A stretch of DNA of 63,856 bases from a bacterium (GTDB lineage Bacteria; Patescibacteriota; Minisyncoccia; Phycocordibacterales; Phycocordibacteraceae). Below, one piece after another: positions 7,997 through 59,257 of this stretch; positions within the stretch are counted from its first letter, which is position 1, and the number at the start of each line of letters is the position of its first letter. The notes below the pieces were generated by a model. The model did not search any database and was not told the origin of the DNA. It saw only the letters and a list, made by a program, of their open reading frames with translations. A program made the position numbers and the translations under genes. The stretch covers positions 1 to 63,856 of the forward strand of contig JAKAKH010000007.1 of the NCBI GenBank assembly GCA_021824605.1, read 5' to 3'.

Positions 7997-8758
7997 ATGC
8001 TTTTTCTCGTCACGATCCTATTTTTCGTGCTCGGGACTATCGTGGCAAGTTTCGTCGGCGTGTTTGTCGCGCGTCTCAATACCGGTCAGAGTTTTCTCAT
8101 CGGCCGTTCCCGCTGCGATGCTTGCGGCGCGCCGCTTTCGGCATTCTCGCTTTTCCCGATTATCTCGTATGTCGCGCTTGGCGCTCGTGCGCGTTGCTGT
8201 GGCGCGCGCCTCTCATTCTTCGCGCCTCTCATGGAATTTATCTTAGGAGGACTTTTTGCGCTTGCGTATCTCAAAATCGGTTTTATCACCGCACTGCCGC
8301 TCATGCTTTTCTCTCTTTCGACGCTCCTCGCGCTTGTCCTCTACGACCTTGCCCACCAGATACTCCCGCCCGCGCTCCTCGGAGCGTTCGTTCTCGCGAG
8401 CGCTTGCACGGGATTTTTCCTGGCGGATGACACAAGCGCATTCGGCGTTTCGCTCATGGTCGCCGGCACTTTCGCGCTTTTTTTGGCGCTCATCAACCTT
8501 CTCTCGCGCGGACGGGCGATGGGACTCGCCGACGCGCCATTTGTATTCGGTCTCGCACTCCTTACGGGCCCCGCCGCATTCGCCGGTTTCATCTCATCGT
8601 TTTGGATCGGTGCGGTTATAGGGATAGTCATGTTGGCACGGAGACCGCGAGGTTCTAGAATGGGAGTTGAGGTACCGTTTGCACCCTTTCTCGCCGCCGG
8701 TTTCCTCCTCATGTACTTTACTCAATGGAATCCTCTCATCATCGCGGCTTTACGCTGA
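7997..8758 (+). CDS. pilD: prepilin peptidase PilD (A24 family)
   Basis: The ATG at 7997 lies after the hairpin; the track start at 7943 would run through it. The protein is polytopic, with an N-terminal CDAC...CCG Cys cluster and A24-type Asp-containing loops. Confidence 0.85.
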   Translation: MLFLVTILFFVLGTIVASFVGVFVARLNTGQSFLIGRSRCDACGAPLSAFSLFPIISYVALGARARCCGARLSFFAPLMEFILGGLFALAYLKIGFITALPLMLFSLSTLLALVLYDLAHQILPPALLGAFVLASACTGFFLADDTSAFGVSLMVAGTFALFLALINLLSRGRAMGLADAPFVFGLALLTGPAAFAGFISSFWIGAVIGIVMLARRPRGSRMGVEVPFAPFLAAGFLLMYFTQWNPLIIAALR

Positions 8759-15598: not shown

Positions 15599-15669
15599 AG
15601 CGGGGTAGAGGAGAGGTACCTCGGGAGGCTCATAACCTCCAGACGCCGGTTCGATTCCGGCCCCCGCAA
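15599..15669 (+). tRNA. tRNA-Met (CAT), initiator-like acceptor end, CCA not encoded
   Basis: I folded it by hand as a cloverleaf. The acceptor is AGCGGGG/CCCCGCA with an A1-A72 mismatch. The D arm is GAGG-AGAGGTA-CCTC, the anticodon arm is GGAGG-CTCATAA-CCTCC, the variable region is 4 nt, and the T arm is GCCGG-TTCGATT-CCGGC. Confidence 0.85.
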
Positions 15670-15958
15670 CACGGTTGTGACGCCAGGAACTAGTACCGAC
15701 AGGCATCAAAGTTAGTACTGTACCGCTCAGGGTGTTCACCAGAAAAAGCTCGCAAATACAATGCGAGCTTTTTCTGTTACGCAGCAAGTTCAACATATTT
15801 CCAGTTCGATTCCTTTTCTCGTATTCGGTGATGTTTTGTGTCGCAATCACATCAAAATCAACTCGATTCTGAGCAGGGGCGCTGGAATCGAACCGACAAA
15901 AGCCACTGAATACACCAGTTTCTGATTTCTCACCCCCTCGAGGGGGGCGAGAAATCAG
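15661..15958 (+). repeat. copy 1 of a roughly 300-bp direct repeat that starts inside the 3' end of tRNA-Met
   Basis: It aligns with 18624-18915 (offset 2963). The first roughly 65 nt are near-identical. A terminator follows at the same position, then a roughly 180-nt segment at roughly 75-80 percent identity by eye. Confidence 0.8.
15741..15776. terminator. bidirectional rho-independent terminator (A-tract, 9-bp stem, T-tract)
   Basis: AGAAAAAGCTCGCA aatacaa TGCGAGCTTTTTCT. Confidence 0.8.
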
Positions 15959-15973: not shown

Positions 15974-16063
15974 TTCTCTATCTCAATAGGCGATGAGGCT
16001 CGCCGTATAACCGCTTGAAAGAGCTGATAGCTTCTACGGATTATCAGTTTTTATCTATTCCGT

Positions 16064-16570
16064 ATGAAGCCATTGTCAGCAGGAAAGAATCCACCGCACG
16101 AGATCGATGTGTACATCGAGATACCGCAGGGCTCGTCGGTGAAATATGAGCTCGACAAGGAGCTCGACGTCGTCCGTGTGGATCGCTTCCTACACACCTC
16201 GATGCAGTACCCGTTCAACTACGGCTTCATACCCGCGACGCACGCCGAGGACGGCGACCCGGCCGATGTCCTGCTCCTGTCCTCATTGCCAATAGTTCCT
16301 GGGGTCATCGTGAGCGCCCGTCCGATAGGCGTGCTTGAAATGGAGGACGAAGCCGGACCGGACAACAAGATACTCGCCGTACCGCTCGAGAAGATCGACC
16401 CTGACCTCGCACACATCAAAGACGCTCAGGATCTGAGCGAGCATGTGAAGCGGCGCATCAAACACTTCTTCGAGAGCTATAAGCAGCTTGAGAATGGGAA
16501 GTGGGTCAAGACCGGTGAGTTCCTGGGTAAGATGGAGGCTGAAGCAGAGATAAGGAAGTCGCTCGGCTGA
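16064..16570 (+). CDS. ppa: inorganic pyrophosphatase, family I
   Basis: 168 aa with a YELDKE...DRFL...YPFNYGFIPATHAEDGDPADVLLL signature region. Confidence 0.92.
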   Translation: MKPLSAGKNPPHEIDVYIEIPQGSSVKYELDKELDVVRVDRFLHTSMQYPFNYGFIPATHAEDGDPADVLLLSSLPIVPGVIVSARPIGVLEMEDEAGPDNKILAVPLEKIDPDLAHIKDAQDLSEHVKRRIKHFFESYKQLENGKWVKTGEFLGKMEAEAEIRKSLG

Positions 16571-16900: not shown

Positions 16901-17353
16901 ATGGATACGCTCGCAATCTTTGGTGCAAAATATCTCTACCTATTCGCCGTAGCGATTGCCGCCGGATATTTTCTTCTGTCAGACAGGAAGAAGGAAATAG
17001 CGATCTTCTCCATTCTTGATTTGGCGGCCGTATACGTAACCGGGCTCTTAGGGAGCGCTTTGTACTACAATCCGCGCCCGTTCGTTTCAGAACACATAAC
17101 GCCTCTCATATCCCATGCTGCCGACAACGGATTTCCTTCCGACCACACGCTTCTTGTCGCGGCGCTCGCGAGCATCTTGTATTGTTATAACCGCGTCTTG
17201 GGCATTGTCGTCTTTGCTATCGCGATCCTGGTCGGTGCATCCCGGGTGTTTGCGGGCATCCACCACTCGATCGATATCATCGGTTCTCTCGGTATTGCCA
17301 TCGCGGTGACGCTCGTCGTGTATAGAATGGCCAGAAAACGCTTTTTTGCCTGA
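16901..17353 (+). CDS. PAP2-family lipid phosphatase (undecaprenyl-diphosphate/phosphatidate phosphatase-like)
   Basis: The PAP2 motifs PSDHT and SRVFAGIHHSIDI are present in a polytopic 150-aa protein. Confidence 0.82.
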   Translation: MDTLAIFGAKYLYLFAVAIAAGYFLLSDRKKEIAIFSILDLAAVYVTGLLGSALYYNPRPFVSEHITPLISHAADNGFPSDHTLLVAALASILYCYNRVLGIVVFAIAILVGASRVFAGIHHSIDIIGSLGIAIAVTLVVYRMARKRFFA

Positions 17354-17357
17354 GATC

Positions 17358-18545
17358 ATGGAACAAGCGGAAAAGAAACGTCCGGGCAATGTGTTCTATA
17401 TCGGACTCCTGAGCTTCTTCGGCGGCATAAGCCAGGACATGTTCGTGCCGATCCTGCCGCTGTATCTCGCGAACGTTCTCGGTTTTGACAAGGCGTTCAT
17501 CGGCATCTCCGAAGGGCTCGTTACAAGCGGCGTCGCAATCTTCCGTTTCGTAGCCGGGTTCCTCTCCGACCGATTCGGCAAGAAGAAACCCATCGTTTTC
17601 ATTGGATACTTCTTCTCGCTTGTCGCAAGACCTCTCCTGGCGCTCGCGTCGATCGGGGGCGCCATTCTCGGTCTGCGCCTCCTCGACGGCATCGGCAAGG
17701 GGATGAAGGATTCGCCCAAGGATGCGCTCATTGCCGACTCTACCGACTCGCACGGGCGCGGCAAAGGATTCGGGATCGCCCGCGCGCTCGATACGCTCGG
17801 GTCTGTCGCGGGGCCTCTCATTCTCTTCGGACTCCTCTACCTCCTCCAAGGGAATGCACTCAAGTATCACATCATCCTCTTTCTTTGCGCGATCCCGCTC
17901 CTCGTGACGCTCGCGGTTCTCGTCTTTAAAGTCAGAGAGGTACCGACACAAACAAAGGAGCTCGACGCCCCGGCTGCCTTCACTCTCCCACGGCGGTTCT
18001 ACGTGTTCCTTGGCATCGTGCTGTTGTTCAGTATCGGCAACTCCTCCGACGCCTTCCTCATCTTGCGTGCGCAGAATCTTGGTGTCGTGCTTCTCGTCAT
18101 TCCGCTCGTCTATGCGCTCTTCAATTTCGTGTACGCGAGCGCGTCCATACCGCTCGGAAGCCTTTCCGACCGCATCGGGCGTGAGAAAGTTATCCTGCTC
18201 GGATGGGCCGCTTACGCGCTTGCGTACCTCGGATTCGCAAAGGCAGACGCCGCGTGGCAGGTCTGGGCACTCTTCGCGTTCTATGGCCTCTACTATGCGA
18301 CGACCGAGGGTGTCGCCAAGGCGTTTGTTGCCGATATGGTGTCGCCAGAGCGGCGCGGGCGCGCTTATGGAATCTATAACACCGCTGTCGGGCTCATCGC
18401 GCTCCCCGCGAGCTACATTGCCGGGCTTCTCTGGGACCGCATAAGTCCGGCCGCCCCGTTCTATTTCGGCGCTTCGTTTGCGATCGCCGCGTGTGTCGCA
18501 CTAGTATTGTTTTTATGGCTCTCGCCAAAAAGTCACGCTGAATGA
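17358..18545 (+). CDS. MFS transporter
   Basis: About 395 aa with 12 predicted TM segments and an MFS loop motif (GFLSDRFGKKKP, and again LSDRIGREK). Confidence 0.85.
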   Translation: MEQAEKKRPGNVFYIGLLSFFGGISQDMFVPILPLYLANVLGFDKAFIGISEGLVTSGVAIFRFVAGFLSDRFGKKKPIVFIGYFFSLVARPLLALASIGGAILGLRLLDGIGKGMKDSPKDALIADSTDSHGRGKGFGIARALDTLGSVAGPLILFGLLYLLQGNALKYHIILFLCAIPLLVTLAVLVFKVREVPTQTKELDAPAAFTLPRRFYVFLGIVLLFSIGNSSDAFLILRAQNLGVVLLVIPLVYALFNFVYASASIPLGSLSDRIGREKVILLGWAAYALAYLGFAKADAAWQVWALFAFYGLYYATTEGVAKAFVADMVSPERRGRAYGIYNTAVGLIALPASYIAGLLWDRISPAAPFYFGASFAIAACVALVLFLWLSPKSHAE

Positions 18546-18581
18546 CGGGTGCCGGAATCGAACCGAAGTCGTAAAGAAAAT

Positions 18582-18632
18582 AGCGAGGGATTATGCGGCG
18601 AACGGAGGTGAAGTCAATTCCTGCCCCCGCAA
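18582..18632 (+). pseudogene. degenerate, internally shortened copy of the tRNA-Met gene
   Basis: ATAGCGAGGG...GTCAATTCCTGCCCCCGCAA aligns with the 5' and 3' ends of the tRNA at 15599-15669. Only about 50 nt remain and it cannot form a cloverleaf. Confidence 0.5.
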
Positions 18633-18915
18633 CACGGTTGTGACGCCAGGAACCAGTACCGACAGGCATCAAAATTGGTACTGTTCCGGCGCCCCTAAAA
18701 GACCAAAAACCCGCGTATTTCCATACGCGGGTTTTTGGGTTATGTAGCAAATACAACAAATAGCCAGTTCGATTCCAACTCTCGTATTCGAAGCAGTTCT
18801 GTGTCGCAATCACACGAAAATCAATCCGATTTTGAGCATGGGCGCGGGAATCGAACCGGCAGGGGCCAATGAATACGCCGGTTCTATATTCCTGCCCTCG
18901 TAAGGGAGCAGGAAG
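18624..18915 (+). repeat. copy 2 of the tRNA-linked roughly 300-bp direct repeat
   Basis: See 15661-15958. Confidence 0.8.
18703..18739. terminator. bidirectional rho-independent terminator (different sequence, same position as in copy 1)
   Basis: CCAAAAACCCGCGTA tttcca TACGCGGGTTTTTGG. Confidence 0.8.
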
Positions 18916-18974
18916 TTATCGGGAAATATGACCTAAAACTGAGAAGCAACAGAGAGAATCTCTCTAGATATATA

Positions 18975-19002
18975 TTGATTATTTATATTTGTGTGATACA
19001 AT
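18975..19002 (+). promoter_or_regulatory. promoter of the ATP-grasp/precursor operon (TTGATT-16 nt-TACAAT with TGn extension)
   Basis: TTGATT lies at 18975-18980, TGa at 18994-18996 and TACAAT at 18997-19002. The RBS AAAGGAGA follows at 19023-19030. Confidence 0.6.
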
Positions 19003-19037
19003 TTCACGCGGAAGTTAAATTGAAAGGAGAATTGATC

Positions 19038-20033
19038 ATGAACGAGTGGATTGCAATTGTGTCGTATTCGACAGACCTGCATGCCGAGCATGTTTTGAAG
19101 AGCTTGGTGAGTCAGGGCGCTAAGCCCGTCTTACTGGACCTTGGCGAATATCCTGAGGGAATTCAGATATCGGTCGGGCTAAATAGCGAAGCTCATACAA
19201 GCGTTTCTTTCGAGGTTCGAGGTGAAATCTTGCATGGAGAAGATCTTAAAAGCGTGTGGTGGCGGAGGCCTCTCGGCGCTTATCAGGATGAGTGCGTGGA
19301 TCTTCAGCGTCGATATATTGCTAGCGAGGGAGAAGCTATTACAAGGTCCTTATCGGATCTCTTACCTGCAGCTCACTGGATCTCTGATCCCGACGCAACG
19401 CGAGTTGCCGGCCGTAAGCCAAAGCAACTCGCGCTCGCCGCTAATCTTGGATTCCGTGTTCCTGATTCACTGGTCAGTAATTCGGCTATTGCGATTGAGA
19501 AATTTCTCGATCGCAATGGTGATCGTCCGATTATCTTGAAGGCTGTCAATAGCGCCTTCATTCGTCTCAATCCGAAAGCTCGGGACGATGAAGGTGTGAA
19601 TCGGGTGGTGTATACCAAGCTCGTGCAGCCAGATTTCATCCGTCTGCATCTCTCAAATATTGCCGTATGCCCGTTTATCGTGCAGGAGGCGATATTCAAG
19701 ACTGAAGATATTCGAGTAACCGTTGTCGGAGACGAAGTTTTCGCGATGGGTATCCGGACAAAAATGAAAATCGGCGATGAGCTCGTGGTCGACTGGCGAA
19801 AGATGGATGCAGACCGCGATTATTTCCGGCACGAATTACCGGACGCTGTCGCGGATCTTTGTAGGAAGATAACACAGGAGCTTGGTCTTAAGTTCGGGTG
19901 CATCGACCTGGCCTATTCCGAAGATAATGGATACACGTTCTTCGAAATTAATCCGCAAGGGCAATGGCTTACGTCTGAAGTTCTGCTTAAGTTTCCGATT
20001 ACGGCCGCATTGACCGCACTCTTGCTTAGTTGA
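19038..20033 (+). CDS. ATP-grasp peptide ligase of the microviridin MdnB/MdnC (graspetide macrocyclase) type
   Basis: 331 aa from the ATG at 19038, which has an RBS 7 nt upstream. Landmarks match MdnC-type ligases as I recall them: SVWWRR, KPKQLALAANLGFRVPDS, CPFIVQEAIFKTEDIRVTVVG, DWRK, FGCIDL and FFEINPQGQW. Confidence 0.8.
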   Translation: MNEWIAIVSYSTDLHAEHVLKSLVSQGAKPVLLDLGEYPEGIQISVGLNSEAHTSVSFEVRGEILHGEDLKSVWWRRPLGAYQDECVDLQRRYIASEGEAITRSLSDLLPAAHWISDPDATRVAGRKPKQLALAANLGFRVPDSLVSNSAIAIEKFLDRNGDRPIILKAVNSAFIRLNPKARDDEGVNRVVYTKLVQPDFIRLHLSNIAVCPFIVQEAIFKTEDIRVTVVGDEVFAMGIRTKMKIGDELVVDWRKMDADRDYFRHELPDAVADLCRKITQELGLKFGCIDLAYSEDNGYTFFEINPQGQWLTSEVLLKFPITAALTALLLS

Positions 20034-20082
20034 AGTTTCTGGCCGTATACGGTATAAGACATGGAGAAAGGAGGTGATCAAA

Positions 20083-20238
20083 ATGCAAGACGCAAAGGAA
20101 AAGGCAAATACTACCGTACCACTGACGTTCCTCGTCGCTCAGCCGATTGAGACTGAAATCAAGGCTGCACAGGCGTATGGTTATTCGATGGAAATCGATA
20201 CCAAGCAGCCCAACGGCGACGGATCCGATACTGTCTAG
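20083..20238 (+). CDS. 51-aa candidate graspetide precursor peptide (not in the ORF track)
   Basis: The RBS AAAGGAGG (20067-20074) lies 8 nt before the ATG. The peptide is MQDAKEKANTTVPLTFLVAQPIETEIKAAQAYGYSMEIDTKQPNGDGSDTV. A terminator follows 15 nt after the TAG. Confidence 0.7.
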   Translation: MQDAKEKANTTVPLTFLVAQPIETEIKAAQAYGYSMEIDTKQPNGDGSDTV

Positions 20239-20253
20239 TTCGGGTCTTTACAC

Positions 20254-20295
20254 ACAGACGATGCGTTCCAACGCGTCGTCTGTTCTTTTTATTTT
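20254..20295 (+). terminator. rho-independent terminator of the ATP-grasp/precursor operon
   Basis: ACAGACGATGCGT tcca ACGCGTCGTCTGT followed by TCTTTTTATTTT. Confidence 0.8.
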
Positions 20296-20316
20296 GGTGC
20301 CGTACAATATTAATAC

Positions 20317-20814
20317 ATGCTGAATTCTGAATTATCTGAGCGTCTTTTACAGTTGCTCGCAGAGGACCAGGATGGCCTGAGACAATATAGAGCAGGAACG
20401 CTCTCTCTTGGAGAGATAAACCGTGCTATTCGTGTGCGTACAGAGGAGGCACGCAAGATTTTTAAAATCGAATTTCCGAAAAAGCGACTTGTCGGTGAGG
20501 ATGCTTATCGGGCATTTATTGCGCTTGTTCTGCATTCCGATGATCCTGAATTTATGGATCAGGTTGCGAATACTATTCGTGCATCCGAGACGGAAGATGC
20601 TGATAAATCTCACGCAGCATTTATTATCGATAAATTGCTGGTGCGAGAAGGGAAACCACAGCGGTACGGAACACAATACAGTGCAATAAACGAGGATGGT
20701 TCTGTAGCATTCGTGCCTTTCGAAGATCCAAAAGAAATCGACTCGCGACGAGCAGAGATTGGACTATCATCCATGAAAGAATACGAGGAAACGATTCGAA
20801 AGATTAGGGTTTAA
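20317..20814 (+). CDS. hypothetical protein
   Basis: 165 aa, helical, containing GKPQRYGTQ. No family is confidently recognised. Confidence 0.5.
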   Translation: MLNSELSERLLQLLAEDQDGLRQYRAGTLSLGEINRAIRVRTEEARKIFKIEFPKKRLVGEDAYRAFIALVLHSDDPEFMDQVANTIRASETEDADKSHAAFIIDKLLVREGKPQRYGTQYSAINEDGSVAFVPFEDPKEIDSRRAEIGLSSMKEYEETIRKIRV

Positions 20815-20861
20815 TCTGACGTAGGAATCAGATTCGATTCGAGAAGAAATAACGAAGCAAT

Positions 20862-21203
20862 ATGCAGCACCAGATGAAATTATCGACAGAACCTTTCAAC
20901 CAGATTGCATCTGGCGCGAAAGTTATCGAGTCCCGCCTCTACGACGAGAAACGCCAGCAGATTGCGCTCGGTGACGAGATAGAATTCAGCGAGAATGATC
21001 ATCCTGAAAACAAGGTATACACGAAGGTCATCGAGCTTCTTCGCTACCAATCGTTTAAAGACCTTTTTGTCGATCACGAGCCAGCACTCTTCGGCGGCGA
21101 GAGTCGTGAATTCCTCCTCAATCAGATTAAACAGTTCTACTCGGACGAAGACGAGCAGAAGTACGGTGTGGTGGGTGTGCGAATCGAAAAGGTGAGTGTC
21201 TAG
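20862..21203 (+). CDS. ASCH-domain protein
   Basis: 113 aa. PFNQIASGAKVIESRLYDEKRQQIALGDEIEF is typical of the ASCH (PUA-like) fold. Confidence 0.7.
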   Translation: MQHQMKLSTEPFNQIASGAKVIESRLYDEKRQQIALGDEIEFSENDHPENKVYTKVIELLRYQSFKDLFVDHEPALFGGESREFLLNQIKQFYSDEDEQKYGVVGVRIEKVSV

Positions 21204-21209
21204 CCTAAC

Positions 21210-21255
21210 GACAAACACAGAAGCCGCGACGTACGTCGCGGCTTCTGTGTTTGTC
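21210..21255. terminator. long perfect hairpin terminator
   Basis: GACAAACACAGAAGCCGCGACGT/ACGTCGCGGCTTCTGTGTTTGTC form palindromic arms. Confidence 0.7.
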
Positions 21256-21271
21256 CAGTATCATTGCGCGT

Positions 21272-21511
21272 ATGAAAGTCTACGCCGAAGTTGGGGTTGG
21301 GAATGACACGTTCCTCTCGACTGAATACGAAGAAGGGGATCGGGAATATCGGGTCCCAAGCTTCGTGAAGCCACCACATGTAACAGAATATTATGTCCGT
21401 ATTTGGATACGAAAGACGGTCTATATATTCTCGACCAATGAGGGTTTCAAGAAGATCTCAAAGGATAAAAACAGATTCAAGTTACTTTTTGGAGTTGGCG
21501 GTGTGCGTTAG
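21272..21511 (+). CDS. hypothetical small protein
   Basis: 79 aa from the ATG at 21272. The track start at 21251 lies inside the terminator stem. Confidence 0.4.
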   Translation: MKVYAEVGVGNDTFLSTEYEEGDREYRVPSFVKPPHVTEYYVRIWIRKTVYIFSTNEGFKKISKDKNRFKLLFGVGGVR

Positions 21512-21520
21512 TATGACACT

Positions 21521-22165
21521 ATGACCAAAAATATCTTTCTCCTCAGTATGATGAGCCCGCTCGACGAAGGGTTGCGCGAGACGCTTGCTCGAGAAATTCT
21601 CAAGCGCGGCATGAAGGTTGCGTACATATCCTCGAGTCCGCAGAGTGGTGACCGGCCATACTACCAGTCGACCATTGCCGACTATACGGCAATCAGTCCC
21701 GACATTCGTGTCGACTATTTCGATCTCTCAGATGCTTTCACAGACGAGATGCTCGCTACGCTTCCTTCCTATGCCGCCATCTACCTCTCGGGAGGGAACA
21801 CATTTACTTTTATGGATAGTGCACGAAAGCGCGGACTTCAGACAATTCTTGAACAGCACCTAGCAAACGACGGGGTGCTCATCGGCGCAAGTGCGGGGAG
21901 CATCATGTGCACGCCCTCAATTGAACTTGCGAAGTTTGGTGACGAGAACGAAGTCGGCATGACCGACTTCTCAGGATTCGGATTTATCGACTTCGAGTTC
22001 CATCCGCACTTTAATGATGAATCGAGGGAGCGCGAGCAACTAGCAGAATACCAGCGCACACACGCACAGGAAATTTATACATGCAAGGATGGGGCAGGGA
22101 TACATGTCTCTGACCCAGGAATCGAAGTGTTTGGTGAGGTTTCGAAGCTTGTGTCGATTGAATGA
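21521..22165 (+). CDS. peptidase S51 family (dipeptidase E-like)
   Basis: 214 aa with IYLSGGNTF and the nucleophile context IGASAGS. Confidence 0.75.
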   Translation: MTKNIFLLSMMSPLDEGLRETLAREILKRGMKVAYISSSPQSGDRPYYQSTIADYTAISPDIRVDYFDLSDAFTDEMLATLPSYAAIYLSGGNTFTFMDSARKRGLQTILEQHLANDGVLIGASAGSIMCTPSIELAKFGDENEVGMTDFSGFGFIDFEFHPHFNDESREREQLAEYQRTHAQEIYTCKDGAGIHVSDPGIEVFGEVSKLVSIE

Positions 22166-22303
22166 ATAGGTGAACAGGAATATCTCAATAAGATCATAAG
22201 GTATTGTCGAATACTGATGGCGTGTTACTATCTCGCATGGACATCGGTGGTGCTTGTCCAGGATTCTCCCGTACAACGCCAGTGTCCTTCCTAGGAGTTT
22301 GTT

Positions 22304-22528
22304 GTGGGTAAAAAATCGCAAAAACCTGTATCGAGTCACAATCCATTCGCGGCCGAGGGTTTCAAGCTCTCTTCCTTTACGCATAAATGTTGTTGTGTTG
22401 CCGTGCGTGTTGGGGAGATGGTGGAAGTTCGGGACACGAAAAACCCCGAAGGTCCAACCCTTTCTTTCAACAAGGACGAATGGAAGGCTTTCGTCAGCGG
22501 CATCAAAAATAACGAATTCGACGTCTGA
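22304..22528 (+). CDS. DUF397-domain protein
   Basis: 74 aa with a GTG start and AGGAG 7 nt upstream. The pattern SSF..KCCCVAV....VEVRDTKNPEGPTLSF..DEW.AF is DUF397-like. Confidence 0.65.
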   Translation: MGKKSQKPVSSHNPFAAEGFKLSSFTHKCCCVAVRVGEMVEVRDTKNPEGPTLSFNKDEWKAFVSGIKNNEFDV

Positions 22529-22537
22529 AGGATTCAT

Positions 22538-22575
22538 GGAGGGGACGAATATGTTCCCTCTATTTTATTTTTATT
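22538..22575 (+). terminator. rho-independent terminator
   Basis: GGAGGGGAC gaatat GTTCCCTCT followed by ATTTTATTTTTATT. Confidence 0.7.
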
Positions 22576-22619
22576 CGATCTAGACAATTGCCGCGCAGCA
22601 ATCTGTTATTATCTTCTCA

Positions 22620-23210
22620 ATGTCTTCCCGTAAAACATTTTTCATCATTCCCGGCTTTAAACAAAAAGCGGGTAATAAATCGTTTGTGTGGCTCGGAAAT
22701 CTCTTAAAAGACAGAGGGTTTGAGGTAGTAAAAGTATCTATATGTTGGGAACGTAGAACCATGAAAGAATATGTCGAAGATTTCATCGAAGTGTATAAGA
22801 AGTATCAGTCTGGGGAAAATTATATTTTGGGATTTTCATATGGAGCGGTTATCGCTTTATTGTCGGCTAATGCACTGAAACCAAAGAAAATATATTTGTG
22901 TTCCCTAAGCCCAGACTTCAAAGAAGATGTTTCGGCAATGACGCCCTGGCTAAAGAAATATGTTGGCAAAAGACGTATCGCGTACAGTTTAAAGACAAGC
23001 GGGAGAGAGATCGCGAAGAATCTCAGGATCTCTTCCGTGATTTTTTATGGTGAAGCAGAGGCCAGGGGTTATCCGCAAATTAAAGTTCGATGTGAAGAAA
23101 CGGCTAATCTTGCTGCACGATCAAAGCTCGTGGTGGTAGAAAAGTCGCCTCATCAAATAGACTTCCCAACTTATAAAACGGCACTCATTAAAGAGCTGAA
23201 AACTATATAG
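22620..23210 (+). CDS. alpha/beta-hydrolase-fold protein
   Basis: 196 aa with the nucleophile elbow GFSYG and an FIIPGF start typical of small serine hydrolases. Confidence 0.6.
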   Translation: MSSRKTFFIIPGFKQKAGNKSFVWLGNLLKDRGFEVVKVSICWERRTMKEYVEDFIEVYKKYQSGENYILGFSYGAVIALLSANALKPKKIYLCSLSPDFKEDVSAMTPWLKKYVGKRRIAYSLKTSGREIAKNLRISSVIFYGEAEARGYPQIKVRCEETANLAARSKLVVVEKSPHQIDFPTYKTALIKELKTI

Positions 23211-23270
23211 AAGCCTCTCTTCTTTGCGATTTCTTGTGAGACGGTCGAACGTATTTGCTAGAATACTCAC

Positions 23271-23855
23271 ATGACCGACGAACAATTGATAACCAGAGCA
23301 AAATCCCTACAGGATGAGGCGCGGCGGATTCTAGAGGAACTCGACCTACTCGCGGTTATCGGGGCAATTTCCGAACCAGAAGTCGTCGGGAGCGTGAAGA
23401 ACGGGCTCATGATTATGCCGGACATTGATATTCATGCATGGATGGAAGAGCCAGATCTTAGTGCCGTCGCAAACCTTTTTCCGACACTCATGAAGATGCC
23501 GACTATCCAGATGGTGCATTTCAATAACTATCGCGAGCTACGAAGAGATTTCCGAAAAGATCGCATCAATTTTCCACATGCGTACTATGTCGGAATGCGT
23601 ACGACACAACCCTCTGGCGAGTGGAAGATTGATATGTGGTTTGGAAAGCGTGGGGAAGTGGGCGACTACGATGCGACCGAACTCGATACGATGACCGACG
23701 AACAACGTCTCGTCATTCTGAGACTCAAGGAAATATGGAAAGACGGTAAGGGGTATCGAGATGGTGTCCTCAGTACTGATTTCTACAAAGCGGTCATGCG
23801 ACATAACGTGAAAGATGAAGAAGGATTTATAGAATACTTGAGAACGAAAGAATAA
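23271..23855 (+). CDS. nucleotidyltransferase-fold (Pol-beta superfamily) protein
   Basis: GS-x10-DIDIH (GSVKNGLMIMPDIDIH) fits the GS...DxD NTase motif. It is 194 aa. Confidence 0.55.
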   Translation: MTDEQLITRAKSLQDEARRILEELDLLAVIGAISEPEVVGSVKNGLMIMPDIDIHAWMEEPDLSAVANLFPTLMKMPTIQMVHFNNYRELRRDFRKDRINFPHAYYVGMRTTQPSGEWKIDMWFGKRGEVGDYDATELDTMTDEQRLVILRLKEIWKDGKGYRDGVLSTDFYKAVMRHNVKDEEGFIEYLRTKE

Positions 23856-23858
23856 CGT

Positions 23859-24359
23859 ATGGAAATAAAATCAACATTGAAAAGCCGACTGTCGGGGATA
23901 GTGCCGGTGGTATATCGAGACATCGAATCGATTGATGAGCTTGGTGACCGAGTGGTCCACGGCGTCCATGCGTATTGTTTTGTAGGCGATAAGCTCGTCA
24001 TCGTGTATTCAGAAGCAAAGGGATATTGGACACCGCCGGGTGGGGGAGTAGAGCCGGGCGAGACGATTGAAGAGGCAACTATACGTGAAGTGCTCGAAGA
24101 AACAAATATGCGCGTGCTCAAACAGCGCATCATCGGCTATCAAGAAGTCTCTGAACCACATCGACTTACGGTGCAGGTGCGTTCGGTCTGTATCGTCGAA
24201 CCGATTGGACCGTTCGTTGCAGACGCTGACTCCAGTGATGGCGAGGGTGTGACAGAGATTAAACTCATCGACCCAAAAAACATCAAACAGTACTTTGACT
24301 GGGGCGAAGTTGGCGAGCATATCCTCGCCCGGGCCTTGTCTATCAAAGGAGGGCTTTGA
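23859..24359 (+). CDS. NUDIX hydrolase
   Basis: The Nudix box is GGGVEPGETIEEATIREVLEETN. Confidence 0.85.
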   Translation: MEIKSTLKSRLSGIVPVVYRDIESIDELGDRVVHGVHAYCFVGDKLVIVYSEAKGYWTPPGGGVEPGETIEEATIREVLEETNMRVLKQRIIGYQEVSEPHRLTVQVRSVCIVEPIGPFVADADSSDGEGVTEIKLIDPKNIKQYFDWGEVGEHILARALSIKGGL

Positions 24360-24371
24360 ACGCTGTTGATT

Positions 24372-24704
24372 ATGCAAGAAGTCGCACAAAAGATTCGGAG
24401 TGATTTTGAAGCCGGTGTGATTGATCAGGAATTACTTGTTGAGCTTTATAAGGGGTATAAAGATGTTGGCGATACGGTACAGTTTGTAACCAAAGCAAGA
24501 GAGATATTTCCGAATGGGAATTGCGGCCTCGCATCTCTCTATCTTAAGGAGAAGCTCGGAGGGGAAGTAGTTCAGGGGAAGTATGGAAAACATAATCATA
24601 CGTTTCTGTTTGTCGATGGAACGGTTATTGATATCACCGCAGATCAATTCGGAGGTCCTAAAGTTTATATAGGACCTCTTCAATTTCCCTGGGAGCTTGC
24701 TTAA
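24372..24704 (+). CDS. hypothetical protein
   Basis: 110 aa from the ATG at 24372. No family is recognised. Confidence 0.45.
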   Translation: MQEVAQKIRSDFEAGVIDQELLVELYKGYKDVGDTVQFVTKAREIFPNGNCGLASLYLKEKLGGEVVQGKYGKHNHTFLFVDGTVIDITADQFGGPKVYIGPLQFPWELA

Positions 24705-24709
24705 TAAAA

Positions 24710-24727
24710 GCCGCCCCTTGGGGCGGC
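24710..24727. terminator. GC hairpin between convergent genes (the T-tract is on the minus strand)
   Basis: GCCGCCCC tt GGGGCGGC preceded by AAAA. It serves the minus-strand GNAT gene best. Confidence 0.6.
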
Positions 24728-24732
24728 AAGCA

Positions 24733-25401
24733 TTAGAAGATGCTCGTTTCTTTTTCGAGTTGTGCATGTTGTTCGTCTGTAAGTCTCGGTAGACTTTTTG
24801 TTTTTTGGTAGTTCGCCCAAATTGGTTCCCAATCCTCCCGAAAGATCTCGAGGCTAATACTGTCGACGAAGTTTCCGTTGTCGAAGTGGTGAGATTTATG
24901 TCGACCAACTTGCTTGAAACCGCAGGCCAGCAAGTGACCCCAGCTATTCCCATTGAATGCTTTTACGCGCGAGCAGACCTTACGGAATCCGCGTACACGA
25001 AATGCTTCGTATAGGAGCAGTAGCTTCGCTTCGGTACCGTAGCCCTTGCCGAAGCAGGTTGGGTCGATAATGAGACTCCCACTTTCGCAGTATCCGCCTG
25101 GCCACGTTAGGTCGTGTAGACCAGTATGGCCGATATAGCGGTATCCAGTTACGATGCCCGCCGAATCTTTCTGGTGAAGAAGGATGGCAAAGATGAGATT
25201 ACCTCTCTTGCTGATATTTTCGTACCATGCGAATTCGGTTTCGAGTGTTACTGGTGGTTGCAATACAACCCCTCGCGTCACTTCTGGGTTATTCACTCCC
25301 GACATGCAGAGGGGGATGTAGTCCCGTTGCATTGCGCCGAGAGACAAGTACAGCAAGCCATGGCGAGTTGGATAATGAGTACCCACAACTATTCCTCTCA
25401 A
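24733..25401 (-). CDS. GNAT-family N-acetyltransferase (RimJ/RimL-like)
   Basis: 222 aa with the acetyl-CoA motif region FGKGYGTEAKLLLLYEAF. Confidence 0.75.
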   Translation of the reverse strand: MRGIVVGTHYPTRHGLLYLSLGAMQRDYIPLCMSGVNNPEVTRGVVLQPPVTLETEFAWYENISKRGNLIFAILLHQKDSAGIVTGYRYIGHTGLHDLTWPGGYCESGSLIIDPTCFGKGYGTEAKLLLLYEAFRVRGFRKVCSRVKAFNGNSWGHLLACGFKQVGRHKSHHFDNGNFVDSISLEIFREDWEPIWANYQKTKSLPRLTDEQHAQLEKETSIF

Positions 25402-25720
25402 AGATCACGCTCTGCTCAAGAAGATAAAGAAAAACCTCAGCTTCCGCAGAGCCGAGGTTTTTCTTTGTATCTTTATTGTTAGAGGGTGTGGAGAAGAAAA
25501 ATCGCGGCTATGCACAAGCAAGACCAAGACCTGAGATCTCGATCGTCATTCGTGAATAGTCGCAATTCAAATGCATAACGAAATACTAGCTTTTCTAGTA
25601 TTTTTGTCAATACCGGTAGGTACGCCGTACCTCACCTACCGAGCGTCGTGACTACTTGCTGCGTGGTATACTCAATCGCGTATCCTGAGATACTTATTAA
25701 GTTTAGTATTACTTTATTGT

Positions 25721-26383
25721 ATGTATAACTTCGTCCGTTCTCGTGCTGTTTCTGTAGCCACTGGTGCTGTCTTCTTCGCAGCACTTTTTAGCGTGGCACC
25801 AGTTGCCCAGGCGGCTACTCTCTCAGCAACGCAGATCAGTGCCATTACAAATCTGCTCCAAGCTTTCGGCGCTGATCCGGCGGTTGTGGCAAACGTCCAG
25901 TCGGTGCTTGAGGGTACGTCGACCTCGACGCCGGCAGTCCAGCCTCCGGTGCAGCTTCCGACTATCTCCGGGACACTGATGGGTGGAAATGGATGCAATG
26001 TCGTCTCCGGTGATCTTCGCCCAGGTGTCTTTGGTGCGGAGGTGTCACGACTCCAAGCGTTCCTTGGGAAGGACAAGAGCATTTACCCTGAGGGTTCAGT
26101 CACAGGCCACTTTGGTCCGATGACCGAGGAAGCTGTGCAGCGATGGCAGTCCTCACACGGTATTGTGGCCACGGGTACGCCAGCGACAACCGGTTTTGGC
26201 GTTGTTGGTCCGCGAACGCTCAGGGAGATGGATCGCGAGATGGAGATGGAGTGCGAGAATGGTGACACAGGTAGCGTCACAGCATCTTCAACTTCTTCCG
26301 AGTCGTCAGCAAGCGTTGAAGGTACGGCAGTAACGACCACTGGTGACAGTACCGCCTCCTCGACCTCGTCGCACGATAACTAG
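25721..26383 (+). CDS. secreted protein with peptidoglycan-binding (PG_binding_1) domain
   Basis: A signal peptide is present. GAEVSRLQAFLGKD...GHFGPMTEEAVQRWQ is PG_binding_1-like, and the tail is Ser/Thr-rich. Confidence 0.7.
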   Translation: MYNFVRSRAVSVATGAVFFAALFSVAPVAQAATLSATQISAITNLLQAFGADPAVVANVQSVLEGTSTSTPAVQPPVQLPTISGTLMGGNGCNVVSGDLRPGVFGAEVSRLQAFLGKDKSIYPEGSVTGHFGPMTEEAVQRWQSSHGIVATGTPATTGFGVVGPRTLREMDREMEMECENGDTGSVTASSTSSESSASVEGTAVTTTGDSTASSTSSHDN

Positions 26384-49566: not shown

Positions 49567-50325
49567 GTGGAGTACTATAAAGGTATGAAAGAAACGCGTC
49601 TTTGTATGGGTATGCCCATTGAGATTGAAATCGTCGGGACAGACGTATCGAAGCCTCTTGAGGCGGCTTTTGCATATTTGGCGGCTGTGGATGAGCGTTT
49701 TAGCACCTATAAAGAGACCAGTGAAATAGCACAAATGAATCGCGGTGAGGTCACGCTCGCGGCAGCAAGTGAAGATATGCGCGAGGTCTTTGCGATCGCT
49801 GAAGCGACAAAGCAAGAGACACAGGGGTACTTCGATATCCGTCGACCTGACGGGAACCTCGACCCATCAGGCATCGTGAAGGGCTGGGCGATTCGTAATA
49901 CCGCCGCACGCATACAGAAAGCGGGGTATGAAAATTACTTCGTTAATGCAGGTGGGGATATCGCGATGGGCGGCACAAATGCGGAGGGGAAAGACTGGAG
50001 TGTGGGTATTCGTAATCCATTCAATACGAATGAAATTGTGAAGGTCGTATATCCGCGAGGAAAGGGTATTGCAACCTCCGGTTCGTATATCCGCGGCGCG
50101 CATATCTATAACCCGCATATGCCAGAAGAAGAGCTGACGGATATCGTGAGCATTACCGTCATTGGTCCTGACGTGCTCGAGGCGGACCGTTTTGCAACAG
50201 CAGCTTTTGCTATGGGGAGACAGGGCATCGCCTTTATCGAGCGGCTCCCCGCTTTTGAGGGGTATGCGATCGGCGCGTCAGGCATCGCGACGATGACCAG
50301 CGGTTTTCGCACCTATACACAGTAG
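49567..50325 (+). CDS. apbE: FAD:protein FMN transferase ApbE
   Basis: Motifs GYFDIRRPDG, DPSGIVKGWA and IATSGSY are present. It is about 250 aa. Confidence 0.85.
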   Translation: MEYYKGMKETRLCMGMPIEIEIVGTDVSKPLEAAFAYLAAVDERFSTYKETSEIAQMNRGEVTLAAASEDMREVFAIAEATKQETQGYFDIRRPDGNLDPSGIVKGWAIRNTAARIQKAGYENYFVNAGGDIAMGGTNAEGKDWSVGIRNPFNTNEIVKVVYPRGKGIATSGSYIRGAHIYNPHMPEEELTDIVSITVIGPDVLEADRFATAAFAMGRQGIAFIERLPAFEGYAIGASGIATMTSGFRTYTQ

Positions 50326-50363
50326 ATAATTTGTGGTATTTTCTCAACAGAAAGGAGCTCCGT

Positions 50364-50552
50364 ATGTCTGACTCATTCAAGTACTGTGAGTGCGGGCGAC
50401 CAATTCGAGTAAGGAATGTGCGACACAAATGGATACGGCCCAGGAGGGATCACGACCAATGCAATCAATGTTTCCGGGCGATTCTTGGATTGCCGCATCA
50501 TACCGCCTTCCGCAGGTCATCCGCACCCCGCAAGCCCACGAGAAGCCCATAA
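50364..50552 (+). CDS. small basic zinc-ribbon protein
   Basis: The RBS AAAGGAG lies 6 nt before the ATG. It is 62 aa, Arg/Lys/His-rich, with CxC-x22-CxxC. Confidence 0.5.
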   Translation: MSDSFKYCECGRPIRVRNVRHKWIRPRRDHDQCNQCFRAILGLPHHTAFRRSSAPRKPTRSP

Positions 50553-50573
50553 TTCGTGGGCTTCTCTTTTTTC
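50540..50573 (+). terminator. rho-independent terminator whose loop contains the stop codon of the zinc-ribbon ORF
   Basis: GAGAAGCCCAT aattc GTGGGCTTCTC followed by TTTTTTC. Confidence 0.8.
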
Positions 50574-50596
50574 TACTATACTATTGAAGCAATACT

Positions 50597-51616
50597 ATGA
50601 TGCCACTTGATCGAAATGAGAGTTACTGGCTGCTTGATGATGAGTTGGTTGGGGCTGTGCAGGCTCCGAAAATGCAGGAGCTCTCAACGTACCCAGAGTA
50701 TGACGAGTTGAAGGGCGCACTCGCACAGTATGCGGGTGTTACCTCAGGACAGGTGCTTATCACCCCTGGTTCGGTGACAGCAATAGAATATATCGCACGT
50801 GTATATGCGAAAAAAGAAGAGGCAATTTTACCGGTACCAACTTTCTATTGTTACGAGTCAATTCTTGAGAGTGTGGATGCAAAAATTCTGCCTATTGCAT
50901 ACGAAGAACAAAATGGTTCCTTCGTATTTCCTCTTCAAAAAACAATAGAAGCGCTTGAGCGCGATTCGACAAAAATACTTTTTCTCTGTCATCCGAATAA
51001 TCCGCTTGGCTGCTCGCTCTCTGCAGCCGACATTTCGGCGCTCGTAGCTGCCGCACGAAGAAGTAAGGCTCTGATTGTTTCTGATGAAGCCTATTTTGAG
51101 TTCTCTACAGGAACAACTTTCTTGCCATATCTCTCAGAGTTACCGAATTTGATTATCATCCGTACTCTTTCGAAGGCGTTTGCGCTTTCAGGTGCGCGTG
51201 TGGGGTATGTTATTGCGGCTCCAGAGATTGTGAAGGAAATAGAGAAGATTATATTGCCTTGGCCAGTAGCGTATCAGAGTGTGACTGCCGCACTTACTCT
51301 TCTTGCTCAGGCCGATAAAGTGAAAGTGCGTCGCGATGCGGTCATCGCTGAACGTGAGCATTTCATACAGGAATTGAGGAAGATCTCGGGCATCATCGTA
51401 TATCCGTCTGAGACCAATTTTGCTCTCGTGCGCGTGCCGGATGCTGCGCGTATTCGCGACGCTCTCTTCGCGCAAGGTATCCGTGTAGCTCTAGGAGAAC
51501 CGATGAGTCATGTTCCTGAAGCAAAAATGCTTCTCAGAGATACGCTTCGTATCGCAGTGCCTGATCCAGAATCAAAAATTTATTTGCTTGAGAAACTGCG
51601 AGAATACTTTCATTAA
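50597..51616 (+). CDS. class I/II PLP-dependent aminotransferase (histidinol-phosphate aminotransferase-like)
   Basis: 339 aa with the PLP-Lys context RTLSKAFALSGARVGY and NPNNPLG. Confidence 0.75.
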   Translation: MMPLDRNESYWLLDDELVGAVQAPKMQELSTYPEYDELKGALAQYAGVTSGQVLITPGSVTAIEYIARVYAKKEEAILPVPTFYCYESILESVDAKILPIAYEEQNGSFVFPLQKTIEALERDSTKILFLCHPNNPLGCSLSAADISALVAAARRSKALIVSDEAYFEFSTGTTFLPYLSELPNLIIIRTLSKAFALSGARVGYVIAAPEIVKEIEKIILPWPVAYQSVTAALTLLAQADKVKVRRDAVIAEREHFIQELRKISGIIVYPSETNFALVRVPDAARIRDALFAQGIRVALGEPMSHVPEAKMLLRDTLRIAVPDPESKIYLLEKLREYFH

Positions 51617-51645
51617 TTTGAATATCGTGGTATATATAAGGCTTA

Positions 51646-53181: not shown

Positions 53182-53184
53182 AAT

Positions 53185-53964
53185 TCAATTCTTCTTTTTT
53201 CGTATTTGTTTGTCGAGTCGTCCTGCTTCTTCCCACGCAAGTCTGAAGAGACTTTTCATAACATTCGCTACATCTCGACTTTGAATGATCACCCCGAATT
53301 CTTCCACTATAGAAATGAATACAATTTTATCTGTGTATATGCGTAATTCAGAAGGGAATGAATATATGTTAGCAGGAACATATCGTACTTCCGATCTGCT
53401 CTTTTTATCGAGAGTCACATCCTCAACTGTCTTTTTATAAGGAGAAATTATCTTTGTCTTATATCTGCACAGAATATTTTTTCTCTTCAAAAAAGAAGAC
53501 GATGAATCCAAGTATGCTTTTGGTGAAGGTAGGAATGCGTACACCTCAGTACTTCGTGGCTGCATCAATAAATCATTGTTAACAGTGCGTATTCCACCAG
53601 TTCCTTCATAAAATAAAATATGTGGCTGAACTTTTAATTTTTCAGATACTGAGAGAAGTTCAGGAAGCAATGAATTCATTTCTTCTTCTTGACGAAGTGA
53701 ATTCTGTGCTAATTCATCAGCTCGCGCTACGAGTCTCTCTGGGGAGATTGCATGATATTTAAAGACCCCATTGTATTGTGATTGTTCTACAATTCCTCGT
53801 TCTATCAACGCTTCAAGTAGGACGTATGTTGATGACCGATTGAGATTTGCACTCCTTGCGATTTCGTGCGCGCCTGCAGAACCTATATCAAGTAATATTT
53901 GATACAAGACCGCTTCTTTTTTTGAAAGCCCGAATTCTTGAAGACATGAAAGTAGATTGCTCAT
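53185..53964 (-). CDS. TrmB-family transcriptional regulator
   Basis: The wHTH is FGLSKKEAVLYQILLDIGSAGAHEIARSANLNRSSTYVLLEAL. It has an ATGA overlap with the upstream paralogue. Confidence 0.8.
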   Translation of the reverse strand: MSNLLSCLQEFGLSKKEAVLYQILLDIGSAGAHEIARSANLNRSSTYVLLEALIERGIVEQSQYNGVFKYHAISPERLVARADELAQNSLRQEEEMNSLLPELLSVSEKLKVQPHILFYEGTGGIRTVNNDLLMQPRSTEVYAFLPSPKAYLDSSSSFLKRKNILCRYKTKIISPYKKTVEDVTLDKKSRSEVRYVPANIYSFPSELRIYTDKIVFISIVEEFGVIIQSRDVANVMKSLFRLAWEEAGRLDKQIRKKKN

Positions 53965-54740: not shown

Positions 54741-54994
54741 GCCGTTCCAACAGATAGAAAATTGATTCATCCATTTGTTGTCATACATTAGCAACAATAT
54801 TGAATATAATCAAGTCAATATGTGTTTAAAATCGATTCAATTTATCATGACATTTTAACTCTCATTTCGACGGCTTCTTCAAAATGGTTGTTTTTTGTTG
54901 ACAACATATTCAATCAGAACAAACTACGTACAGACTGTTCTTTGTCACGGATTGGCCGTAACCGAGTGGCAGTCGTTTTCCTTGGAAGGTTTGT

Positions 54995-55159: not shown

Positions 55160-55169
55160 CCGCTGACCG

Positions 55170-55208: not shown

Positions 55209-55246
55209 AACAGTGTTTCAAAATATATAAGTTTATAATCAATAAA

Positions 55247-57176: not shown

Positions 57177-57177
57177 T

Positions 57178-59255: not shown

Positions 59256-59257
59256 AT

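Follow-up and report, generated by a model that had tools for sequence, protein, structure and literature searches.

A probable three-gene graspetide cassette in Patescibacteria: ATP-grasp ligase, short precursor and DUF6624

What does an ATP-grasp ligase gene make together with the very short open reading frame (ORF) that follows it, and are these two genes the whole of the system? The question is raised by a 63,856-nucleotide contig from a bacterium of the Patescibacteriota (family Phycocordibacteraceae; JAKAKH010000007.1 of assembly GCA_021824605.1), the whole of which we call the window. A preliminary description had proposed that the pair is a minimal two-gene cluster for a graspetide, a peptide that is ribosomally synthesized and then modified post-translationally (RiPP). 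We found that the locus is a graspetide-type RiPP cassette, and we conclude that it is very probably a three-gene cassette belonging to a Patescibacteria-specific clade, in which a DUF6624 gene follows those for the ligase and the precursor. The genes and peptide elements in question are the following:

19038 to 20033, + strand: graspetide ATP-grasp macrocyclase, 331 amino acids (aa), from hidden Markov model (HMM) scores, Protein Data Bank (PDB) matches and AlphaFold2 (AF2) fold
20083 to 20238, + strand: precursor peptide, 51 aa, from homologous short ORFs, purifying selection and a profile
20119 to 20133, + strand: leader recognition motif P13-L-T-F-L17, from column conservation
20191 to 20235, + strand: core E37-I-D39-T40-KQPNG-D46-GS-D49-T50-V51, from column conservation, with a predicted role in ring formation
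20317 to 20814, + strand: DUF6624 protein, 165 aa (PF20329, 49.6 bits), a recurrent neighbour

The ligase and its precursor peptide

By HMM scores and predicted fold, the ligase is a RiPP-type ATP-grasp macrocyclase. Its ORF, read from the sequence, runs from an ATG at 19038 to the stop at 20033 and encodes 331 aa, and the motifs that had been taken to place it in the MdnB/MdnC-type clade (SVWWRR, KPKQL..LGF.VP, CPFIVQE..DIRVTVVG, DWRK, FGCIDL and FFEINPQGQW) are all in the translation. The N-terminus matches Pfam PF21068 at 35.4 bits, with a gathering cut-off of 27; PF21068 is the MvdD pre-ATP-grasp domain, a mark of RiPP macrocyclases. With NCBIfam models, the scores were 188 bits for SAV_5884 (TIGR04187; cut-off 350), 164 for MvdC (TIGR04185; cut-off 425), 145 for MvdD (TIGR04184; cut-off 475), 70 for grasp-with-spasm (TIGR04192; cut-off 230), 49.7 for the RimK family (cut-off 143.4) and 34.3 for LysX (cut-off 275.6). 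Because the RiPP models score best and all scores are below the trusted cut-offs, we place the ligase in the graspetide clade but in no named subfamily.

Sequence and fold comparisons agreed with these scores. The best sequence match in the PDB was MdnB (E = 1.5e-27), followed by MdnC, AMdnB, CdnC, PruB and PsnB, and the solved relatives found by sequence are graspetide macrocyclases only. The AF2 model of the ligase had a predicted local distance difference test (pLDDT) score of 92.8. When the model was searched against PDB folds, the top 32 matches were AMdnB, MdnC, CdnC, PruB, MdnB and PsnB, with template-modelling (TM) scores of 0.7-0.83, and ArgX, LysX and RimK ranked behind all of the graspetide macrocyclases. 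The proposed MdnB/MdnC-type identity is thus favoured by HMM scores, PDB sequence matches and fold. The HMM comparison with primary-metabolism ATP-grasp enzymes that had been suggested for this protein gave 145-188 bits for RiPP maturases and 50 for RimK, and we rejected a primary-metabolism identity (RimK, GshB or Ddl type) on these scores and on the fold ranking.

The short ORF that follows the ligase gene is a real coding sequence under strong purifying selection. Compared with L080, a locus 80% identical to that of the window, precursor codons 13-51 have 17 differences that are synonymous only and two amino-acid changes, and the first 12 codons drift freely. The ORF itself was as first described, with 51 codons at 20083-20238, a spacer of 49 nt after the ligase stop and the same translation. 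It had been called hidden; it is missing from the ORF track that was supplied, but the exact 51-aa product is present in public gene calls.

Homologous short ORFs follow the ligase gene in related genomes. We searched 5.8 billion proteins for homologues of the ligase and obtained approximately 75 relatives at 36% identity or above; 79 loci were fetched from genome and metagenome collections, and further loci were added by exact look-up. A short ORF was present 50-85 nt 3' of the ligase gene in almost every locus of the Patescibacteria clade, giving approximately 40 distinct precursor relatives just 3' of homologous ligases, and a profile of the precursor detects 59 called relatives. Many gene-calling pipelines miss this ORF. 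In L086 to L088 (4993-5277), public calls leave an empty gap of 284 nt between the genes for the ligase and DUF6624, and this gap holds a 50-aa precursor ORF, METKNQVRDETPITFLHAETCPVKVVDPPQQGCASENDTFYQGSGDSDTQ; a serine recombinase gene is located 0.4 kb 3' of it. Another relative is deposited as a 'hypothetical protein' (MFZ2555736.1), and one is listed in 67 blocks of a sequence collection, marine metagenomes included.

In the precursor family, residues 1-12 (numbered as in the 51-aa window peptide) vary and residues 13-51 form a conserved 39-residue module. Alignment of the relatives from the leader Pro onward is ungapped to the C-terminus and spans exactly 39 residues in 31 of the approximately 40 distinct sequences, with the pattern P-x-T-x-L ... 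E-x-D-T-x9-D-T-x-stop and with the stop codon always one residue past the last Thr. Among 25-31 distinct sequences, P13, L17, E37, D39, T40, D49 and T50 are invariant and T15 is nearly so. The proposal that PLTFLVAQ is the leader element was borne out for PLTFL, with P13 and L17 invariant and T15 nearly invariant, and the C-terminal tail, with its five invariant positions, was correctly taken for the core. PLTFL also fits the published graspetide leader signature Phhx(1,2)h (PMC8939145).

The residues that had been listed as ring-forming were conserved in part. Of the proposed nucleophiles, T40 and T50 are conserved, but S35 and S48 are variable and 9 of 31 sequences have K41. Of the proposed carboxylates, E37, D39 and D49 are invariant, but D46 changes position: all 31 aligned precursors have an acidic residue at position 46 or 47, and at least one further relative (P0164) has it elsewhere.

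Precursor divergence followed ligase divergence, with a partial r of 0.32 in the case of the core and 0.40 in that of the leader (p = 0.0005). The precursor had no matches in Pfam, NCBIfam or PADLOC, the ligase and the DUF6624 protein had none in PADLOC, and there were no further copies of the precursor in the window. The neighbourhoods of the ligase homologues, which it had been proposed to scan, hold a conserved short ORF with a leader motif and a tail of Thr and Asp or Glu.

DUF6624 as a third gene

The ligase and precursor genes are accompanied by a third gene in most related loci. We clustered all ORFs of at least 70 aa from 54 loci. The ligase family was found in 48 loci and DUF6624 in 44, and no other family was in more than four, except for a shadow ORF on the antisense strand within the ligase gene. 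In 44 of the 54 loci DUF6624 keeps its position and orientation, the other neighbours vary, and in approximately 43 loci the DUF6624 homologue is directly 3' of the precursor. Distances between ligases and between DUF6624 proteins were correlated with r = 0.94 over 25 distinct loci, indicating that the cassette is inherited as a unit. Since DUF6624 is present in 44 of 54 loci, the description of the cluster as a minimal two-gene one is not supported. Two related statements in it stood: related loci also have a single ligase, and neither a GNAT acetyltransferase nor an ABC exporter is conserved, as only the ligase and DUF6624 recur among the 54 loci.

The DUF6624 protein has strongly conserved polar residues in a fold that matched no solved structure. 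There is an invariant block, EGKPQRYGTQ, and H73, D105, R145 and others are invariant as well, so that the invariant polar residues are H73, D105, E111, R116, Y117, T119, Q120 and R145. The AF2 model (pLDDT 84) is a helical bundle with one beta-hairpin. Its best match among PDB folds had E = 0.34 and TM scores were below 0.35, with no significant match, and a sequence profile searched against the PDB gave only a chance-level match of 24 residues to ABCE1. No experimental test of DUF6624 was found in the papers covered.

DUF6624 genes also occur without a ligase. In L084, a Patescibacteria genome syntenic with the window, an orphan DUF6624 gene (8001-8510; also in L085) encodes a protein 81% identical to that of the window, and there was no trace of the ligase or the precursor in L084. 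The orphan has a Fic gene on the opposite strand on its 5' side and a small ORF of 137 aa immediately upstream. More distant DUF6624 genes without any ATP-grasp ligase were found at 4274-5603 of L095 and 107-691 of L097. One set is a tandem pair located after an operon for a membrane-fusion protein and ABC-2 exporter and ahead of genes for outer-membrane channels; another ligase-free gene adjoins one for an aldehyde dehydrogenase. Many members of the DUF6624 family, under the name cluster 23, are predicted lipoproteins (PMC8939145).

DUF6624 is apparently transcribed separately from the ligase and precursor genes, from its own promoter and as a leaderless mRNA. The DNA signals in and around the cassette are:

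18975 to 19002, + strand: promoter-like site from a consensus scan, -35 TTGATT, 16-nt spacer and extended -10 TGaTACAAT (putative function)
19022 to 19030, + strand: Shine-Dalgarno sequence of the ligase gene, GAAAGGAGA, 7 nt 5' of the ATG, read from the sequence and kept in L080 and L081
20067 to 20074, + strand: Shine-Dalgarno sequence of the precursor gene, AAAGGAGG, 8 nt 5' of the ATG, read from the sequence
20254 to 20295, + strand: intrinsic terminator between the precursor and DUF6624 genes, a 13-bp GC-rich hairpin (20254-20283) and the T-tract TCTTTTTATTTT
20303 to 20308, + strand: -10-like box TACAAT, 8 nt 5' of the DUF6624 ATG (predicted from sequence only)

The terminator had been noted before at these positions, and we found it to be conserved across loci. 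The hairpin begins 15 nt past the precursor stop. Of 42 distinct loci, 36 have a T-run directly preceded by a hairpin of at most -10 kcal/mol, with a mean free energy of -16.5 kcal/mol versus -1.7 kcal/mol in shuffled sequences, and the stem sequences vary between loci. Beyond it, a TAnnnT box ends 3-9 nt 5' of the DUF6624 start in 26 of 35 loci (shuffled sequences gave a mean of 13.1 and a maximum of 21), and none of the 35 loci has a Shine-Dalgarno sequence before this start. Given the -10-like box and the lack of a Shine-Dalgarno sequence, a promoter of its own and a leaderless mRNA are the simplest reading.

The signals 5' of the ligase and precursor genes were largely as first described. 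The consensus scan placed TTGATT at 18975 and TACAAT at 19002, with the TG extension. The positions of the -35 and -10 are kept in L080 and L081, relatives 80% identical to the window, but such sites occur at chance frequency: there were four in the region versus 3.1 expected by chance. The site is plausible as the ligase promoter. The strong ribosome binding site (RBS) reported for the precursor, with its 8-nt spacing, is there at 20067-20074. The ORF list has a longer version of the precursor beginning at a GTG (20074), a start that is unlikely to be used because it is inside the RBS AAAGGAGG.

Based on these results, we conclude that DUF6624 is functionally tied to the graspetide system. 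It is probably not an obligatory subunit of the ligase. We lean modestly toward a part in the handling of the cyclised peptide, either in protection and immunity or in processing, and this is the least certain step of the proposal.

The predicted product and rival explanations

In the pathway that we propose, a single promoter would give a bicistronic ligase-precursor mRNA that ends at the intrinsic terminator and on which each of the two genes would be translated from a strong Shine-Dalgarno site, and DUF6624 would be transcribed as a leaderless mRNA from a promoter just past that terminator. By homology to MdnC and PsnB, the ligase would bind the P-L-T-F-L leader element, and the fixed spacer of 24 residues would put the C-terminal core into the active site. 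The ligase would use ATP to phosphorylate side-chain carboxylates, and Thr hydroxyls would attack the activated carboxylates of the resulting acyl phosphates to form omega-ester macrolactones. The only conserved candidate donors are Thr40 and Thr50, and the candidate acceptors are the invariant Glu37, Asp39 and Asp49 plus a mobile Asp or Glu in the loop.

Since only two Thr residues are invariant, the conserved product is most likely bicyclic, with two esters and a mass shift of -36 Da. A hairpin staple is attractive because the loop acid moves, unlike the invariant E37, D39, T40, D49 and T50, and our preferred guess is a stapled beta-hairpin in which Thr40-Asp49 and Thr50-Asp39 (or Glu37) esters would close around a turn rich in Pro, Gly and Asn. 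We know of no characterised graspetide for which such a connectivity, with donors and acceptors on both arms, has been described. A lactam at Lys41 could form only in the 'DTK' subfamily. Leader removal and export are not accounted for by any part of the conserved cassette.

Several points weigh against this proposal. The ligase does not reach the trusted cut-off for any of the named NCBIfam subfamilies that we tested. Both the number of rings and their connectivity are inferred only, and the loop acid is at 32, 46 or 47 (peptide numbering) among the precursors; because it shifts, a microviridin-like Thr40-Asp46 (i+6) ring is possible in the subfamily of the window. There is no protease or exporter in the conserved cassette to account for how or where a mature product would act. 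The promoter calls are consensus matches whose density is not above chance, and the leaderless start of DUF6624 is deduced from sequence alone. In partial Mantel tests that controlled for the ligase, DUF6624 divergence was not correlated with that of the precursor core (partial r = -0.03) and was weakly correlated with that of the leader part (partial r of 0.23, p = 0.009). As the loci are not phylogenetically independent, we take the leader signal as no more than a hint, but it would fit a DUF6624 protein that binds or cleaves the leader better than an immunity protein that binds the core.

Three other explanations of the locus were considered, one of them for the ligase itself. If the ligase were a RimK-like enzyme of primary metabolism, for example one adding C-terminal residues to a small acidic protein, the peptide would not be a macrocyclised RiPP. 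The weak match to the Pfam RimK domain (27.6 bits) agrees with this, and the conserved acidic C-terminus of the peptide, with its fixed stop position, is reminiscent of the RimK substrate S6. However, the RimK family model gives 49.7 bits (cut-off 143) and the RiPP maturase models 145-188, the ligase has an MvdD-type pre-ATP-grasp domain, all graspetide macrocyclases outrank RimK, LysX and ArgX in the fold search, and the precursors conserve a leader motif of the graspetide type. We consider a RimK-like identity hardly credible. A self-sufficient cluster of ligase and precursor, with DUF6624 as an unrelated neighbour, is also highly unlikely in our judgement. It would account for the strong terminator between the precursor and DUF6624 genes and for the ligase-free DUF6624 genes of L084 and of distant genomes, and some published graspetide groups consist of a synthetase and a precursor only (PMC13097080). 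An unrelated neighbour would not be expected to keep its place and orientation in 44 of 54 loci where other neighbours vary, or to co-diverge with the ligase at r = 0.94, and the association of DUF6624 with graspetide loci was found independently in two surveys (PMC8939145; PMC13097080).

The remaining alternative, which we regard as doubtful, gives DUF6624 a part in biosynthesis, either as an obligatory partner of the ligase (a chaperone or leader-presenting protein, like MirC for rosaritide) or as a tailoring enzyme or leader peptidase with a new fold. Its strict co-occurrence and co-divergence with the ligase, the block of invariant polar residues and the weak co-variation with the leader portion of the precursor (partial r of 0.23, p = 0.009) point in this direction; moreover, partner-dependent graspetide synthetases exist, and a biosynthetic role for DUF6624 has been suggested (PMC13097080). 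Yet DUF6624 appears to be transcribed separately behind a terminator, an orphan copy is present in the close relative L084, other DUF6624 genes are in ligase-free contexts, and no enzyme is related to it in fold. Members that are lipoproteins or secreted (PMC8939145) would be ill-suited as partners of a cytoplasmic ATP-dependent ligase. Our own proposal taken in full, with reciprocal Thr40-Asp49 and Thr50-Asp39 esters and with DUF6624 as a new-fold peptide handler (immunity protein or leader peptidase) that is expressed leaderless and is orphaned after ligase loss, is unlikely to be right in every part.

Genomic setting and relation to published graspetides

The host is a member of the Patescibacteria, or candidate phyla radiation (CPR), in agreement with its first description as CPR-like. 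The named sources of ligase homologues are Minisyncoccia, Paceibacterota, Parcubacteria, Taylorbacteria or 'Patescibacteria group', and the window is syntenic with a Patescibacteria metagenome-assembled genome, GCA_018971045.1 (L084), in several blocks of 70-80% nucleotide identity. The cassette is located in an island of lower GC content (approximately 0.45-0.49 versus 0.55), beside tRNA-Met and repeat remnants. There are two such islands in the window, at 18600-26000 and 50000-62000 (0.42-0.49, the rest being approximately 0.55), and the cassette is in the first. Related cassettes adjoin recombinase or transposase genes in some genomes, consistent with mobility of the cassette.

A direct repeat of approximately 200 bp is present 5' of the cassette, at 15655-15860 and 18618-18830, and begins with the last 12 or so nt of tRNA-Met (15599-15670). 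The hairpin in the repeat has a stem that differs between the two copies with the pairing kept. The copies bracket a 2.8-kb segment that looks like an insertion at the tRNA because L084 has a single copy of the repeat. In this segment, a fluoride riboswitch (RF01734, 48.6 bits; 15980-16043, +) is directly 5' of an inorganic pyrophosphatase gene (16064-16570, +), which is followed by an ORF for a 68-aa membrane protein, a PAP2 phosphatase gene and a major facilitator superfamily (MFS) transporter gene (17346-18545). The MFS transporter was rejected as the exporter, as it is inside the repeat-bracketed segment and has no homologue in related loci. The spacer that follows (18546-18975) had only sub-threshold Rfam matches for structured RNA. 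Just 5' of the cassette promoter, on the - strand at approximately 18830-18870, a fragment resembling a tRNA T-arm, GGTTCGATTCCCGCGCCC, had no ARAGORN or Rfam call; this fragment may be left over from a tRNA or an attachment site.

Genes on the 3' side were also considered as members of the cluster. Peptidase S51 (21521-22165) and DUF397 (22304-22528, +), the latter 2 kb 3' of the cassette, were rejected because they are not conserved near other cassettes. DUF397-DUF5753 pairs are regulators in Actinomycetota and co-occur with graspetide groups 11 and 13 (PMC13097080). In the closest loci beyond L080 and L081, L082 (2089-5865) and L083 (2158-4690), the cassette is followed by a gene for a protein of approximately 520 aa without a Pfam match, and in L082 then by genes for a ThiF-like E1 enzyme, a nitroreductase-like protein and a seven-transmembrane histidine kinase. 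These downstream genes of L082 may be a second modification module.

Because Patescibacteria genomes are tiny and the cassette is kept across dozens of lineages, which come from groundwater, lake and marine samples, it probably matters for the lifestyle of these cells. If the proposal is true, the cassette could mediate interaction of these ultra-small episymbionts with the host cell or with competitors. It is compact, at approximately 1.9 kb and three genes, and should be easy to express heterologously. Its main value lies in offering a test bed in which a first structure of a CPR graspetide might be obtained and the function of DUF6624 examined; this family turns up in several groups of graspetides, and two publications have drawn attention to it. 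On their own, our findings leave the general picture of graspetide biology unchanged; the 39-residue module, the two Thr donors, the terminator, the probable leaderless transcript and the orphan DUF6624 sharpen the question of what DUF6624 does.

The architecture of a CPR graspetide locus with DUF6624 has already been described, in 2022 and 2026, and the rarity of reported RiPPs in such hosts, which had been put forward as a novelty, therefore does not hold (PMC8939145; PMC13097080). Makarova et al. (Biol Direct, 2022) published graspetide clusters in CPR bacteria, among them a Branch 1 of Parcubacteria ligases of 327-338 aa with P-h-h-x-h leaders, and an uncharacterised partner, 'cluster 23', in CPR and Bacteroidetes loci (PMC8939145). 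The sequence GKPQRYGTQ occurs 81 times in the cluster 23 alignment (PMC8939145), and since this motif is common to both, cluster 23 is the DUF6624 family. Carter, Ramesh, Saad, Mubarik and Mitchell (ACS Chem Biol, 2026) defined 43 graspetide groups; group 42 has 22 biosynthetic gene clusters, many from candidate-phyla hosts, with DUF6624 in 82% (18 of 22) as the only enriched partner, and the authors raised the possibility that DUF6624 is an undiscovered biosynthetic enzyme (PMC13097080). Across the two surveys DUF6624 recurs in groups 18, 20, 23 and 42 and in Makarova branches 1, 2 and 5 (PMC13097080; PMC8939145).

The precursor family appears to be new, in that it has no match to the accessible published CPR representatives, and none of its own members is characterised. 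Its profile does not detect the group 42 representative or any Makarova CPR precursor, and the leader words ITFL and LTFL are absent from the part of the supplementary text of PMC8939145 and PMC13097080 that was covered.

Group 42 resembles the window in its candidate-phyla hosts, single synthetase, short precursor and DUF6624 as sole enriched partner, and, like the window family, it is experimentally uncharacterised. Its representative precursor (Ca. Komeilibacteria, ...KPLILDRL...MEGFTTHGTPNDPDSGGTD) likewise has a Thr- and Asp-rich end and spans approximately 40 residues between the leader Pro and the C-terminus, but does not have the E-x-D-T...D-T-x end of the window family. This likeness is one of precursor and gene content, with the group 42 ligase (MFW0837389.1) outside the comparison. 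Branch 1 shares with the window a Parcubacteria ligase of 327-338 aa and P-h-h-x-h leaders (IPLMFLFGE, LPLTFEFGE). Its published core signature, TxxxTx(6-10)Dx(1-4)D, is unlike that of the window family, and its loci often have TPR proteins or metallopeptidases, which the window cassette does not. A different system is found in the next clade of ligases outward (35-37% identity), where a membrane protein encoded downstream takes the place of DUF6624. Its precursors are upstream of the ligase (L089, 667-882; L090, 3862-4011) and have PFLARFA or PFLLRFA leaders and one or two 'RETTDD' cores. DDE transposase genes are near the copies in L090 and L091, on both sides in L090.

Most graspetides that have been characterised are inhibitors of serine proteases. 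Among characterised graspetides, plesiocin (PsnB, group 2) is like the window in having a single ligase, of similar fold (TM approximately 0.75), and in ester-only Thr-acid cross-links, a hairpin-like core and nested rings, features that we predict for the window product. In plesiocin the core repeats TTxxxxEE four times and every donor is N-terminal to the acceptors, whereas the window has a single core in which D-T...D-T places both on each arm, and sequence identity is approximately 22%. Microviridin MdnB and MdnC (group 1) are the best solved structural relatives of the ligase (MdnB, 1.5e-27, TM 0.8). The microviridin leader, like that of the window, combines a Pro with hydrophobic residues, and the T-K-x-P-x-x-D of the window subfamily spaces Thr and Asp at i+6, as does the first microviridin lactone. 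In contrast, microviridin loci have two ligases and a PFFARFL leader, the window one ligase and PLTFL. As had been noted from the window peptide, the core is unlike the microviridin TxKxPSDx(D/E)(D/E): the family has no conserved Lys and no PSD motif. Also unlike the microviridin systems, the window cassette has no GNAT or ABC transporter and its ligase scores far below the MvdC and MvdD equivalog cut-offs.

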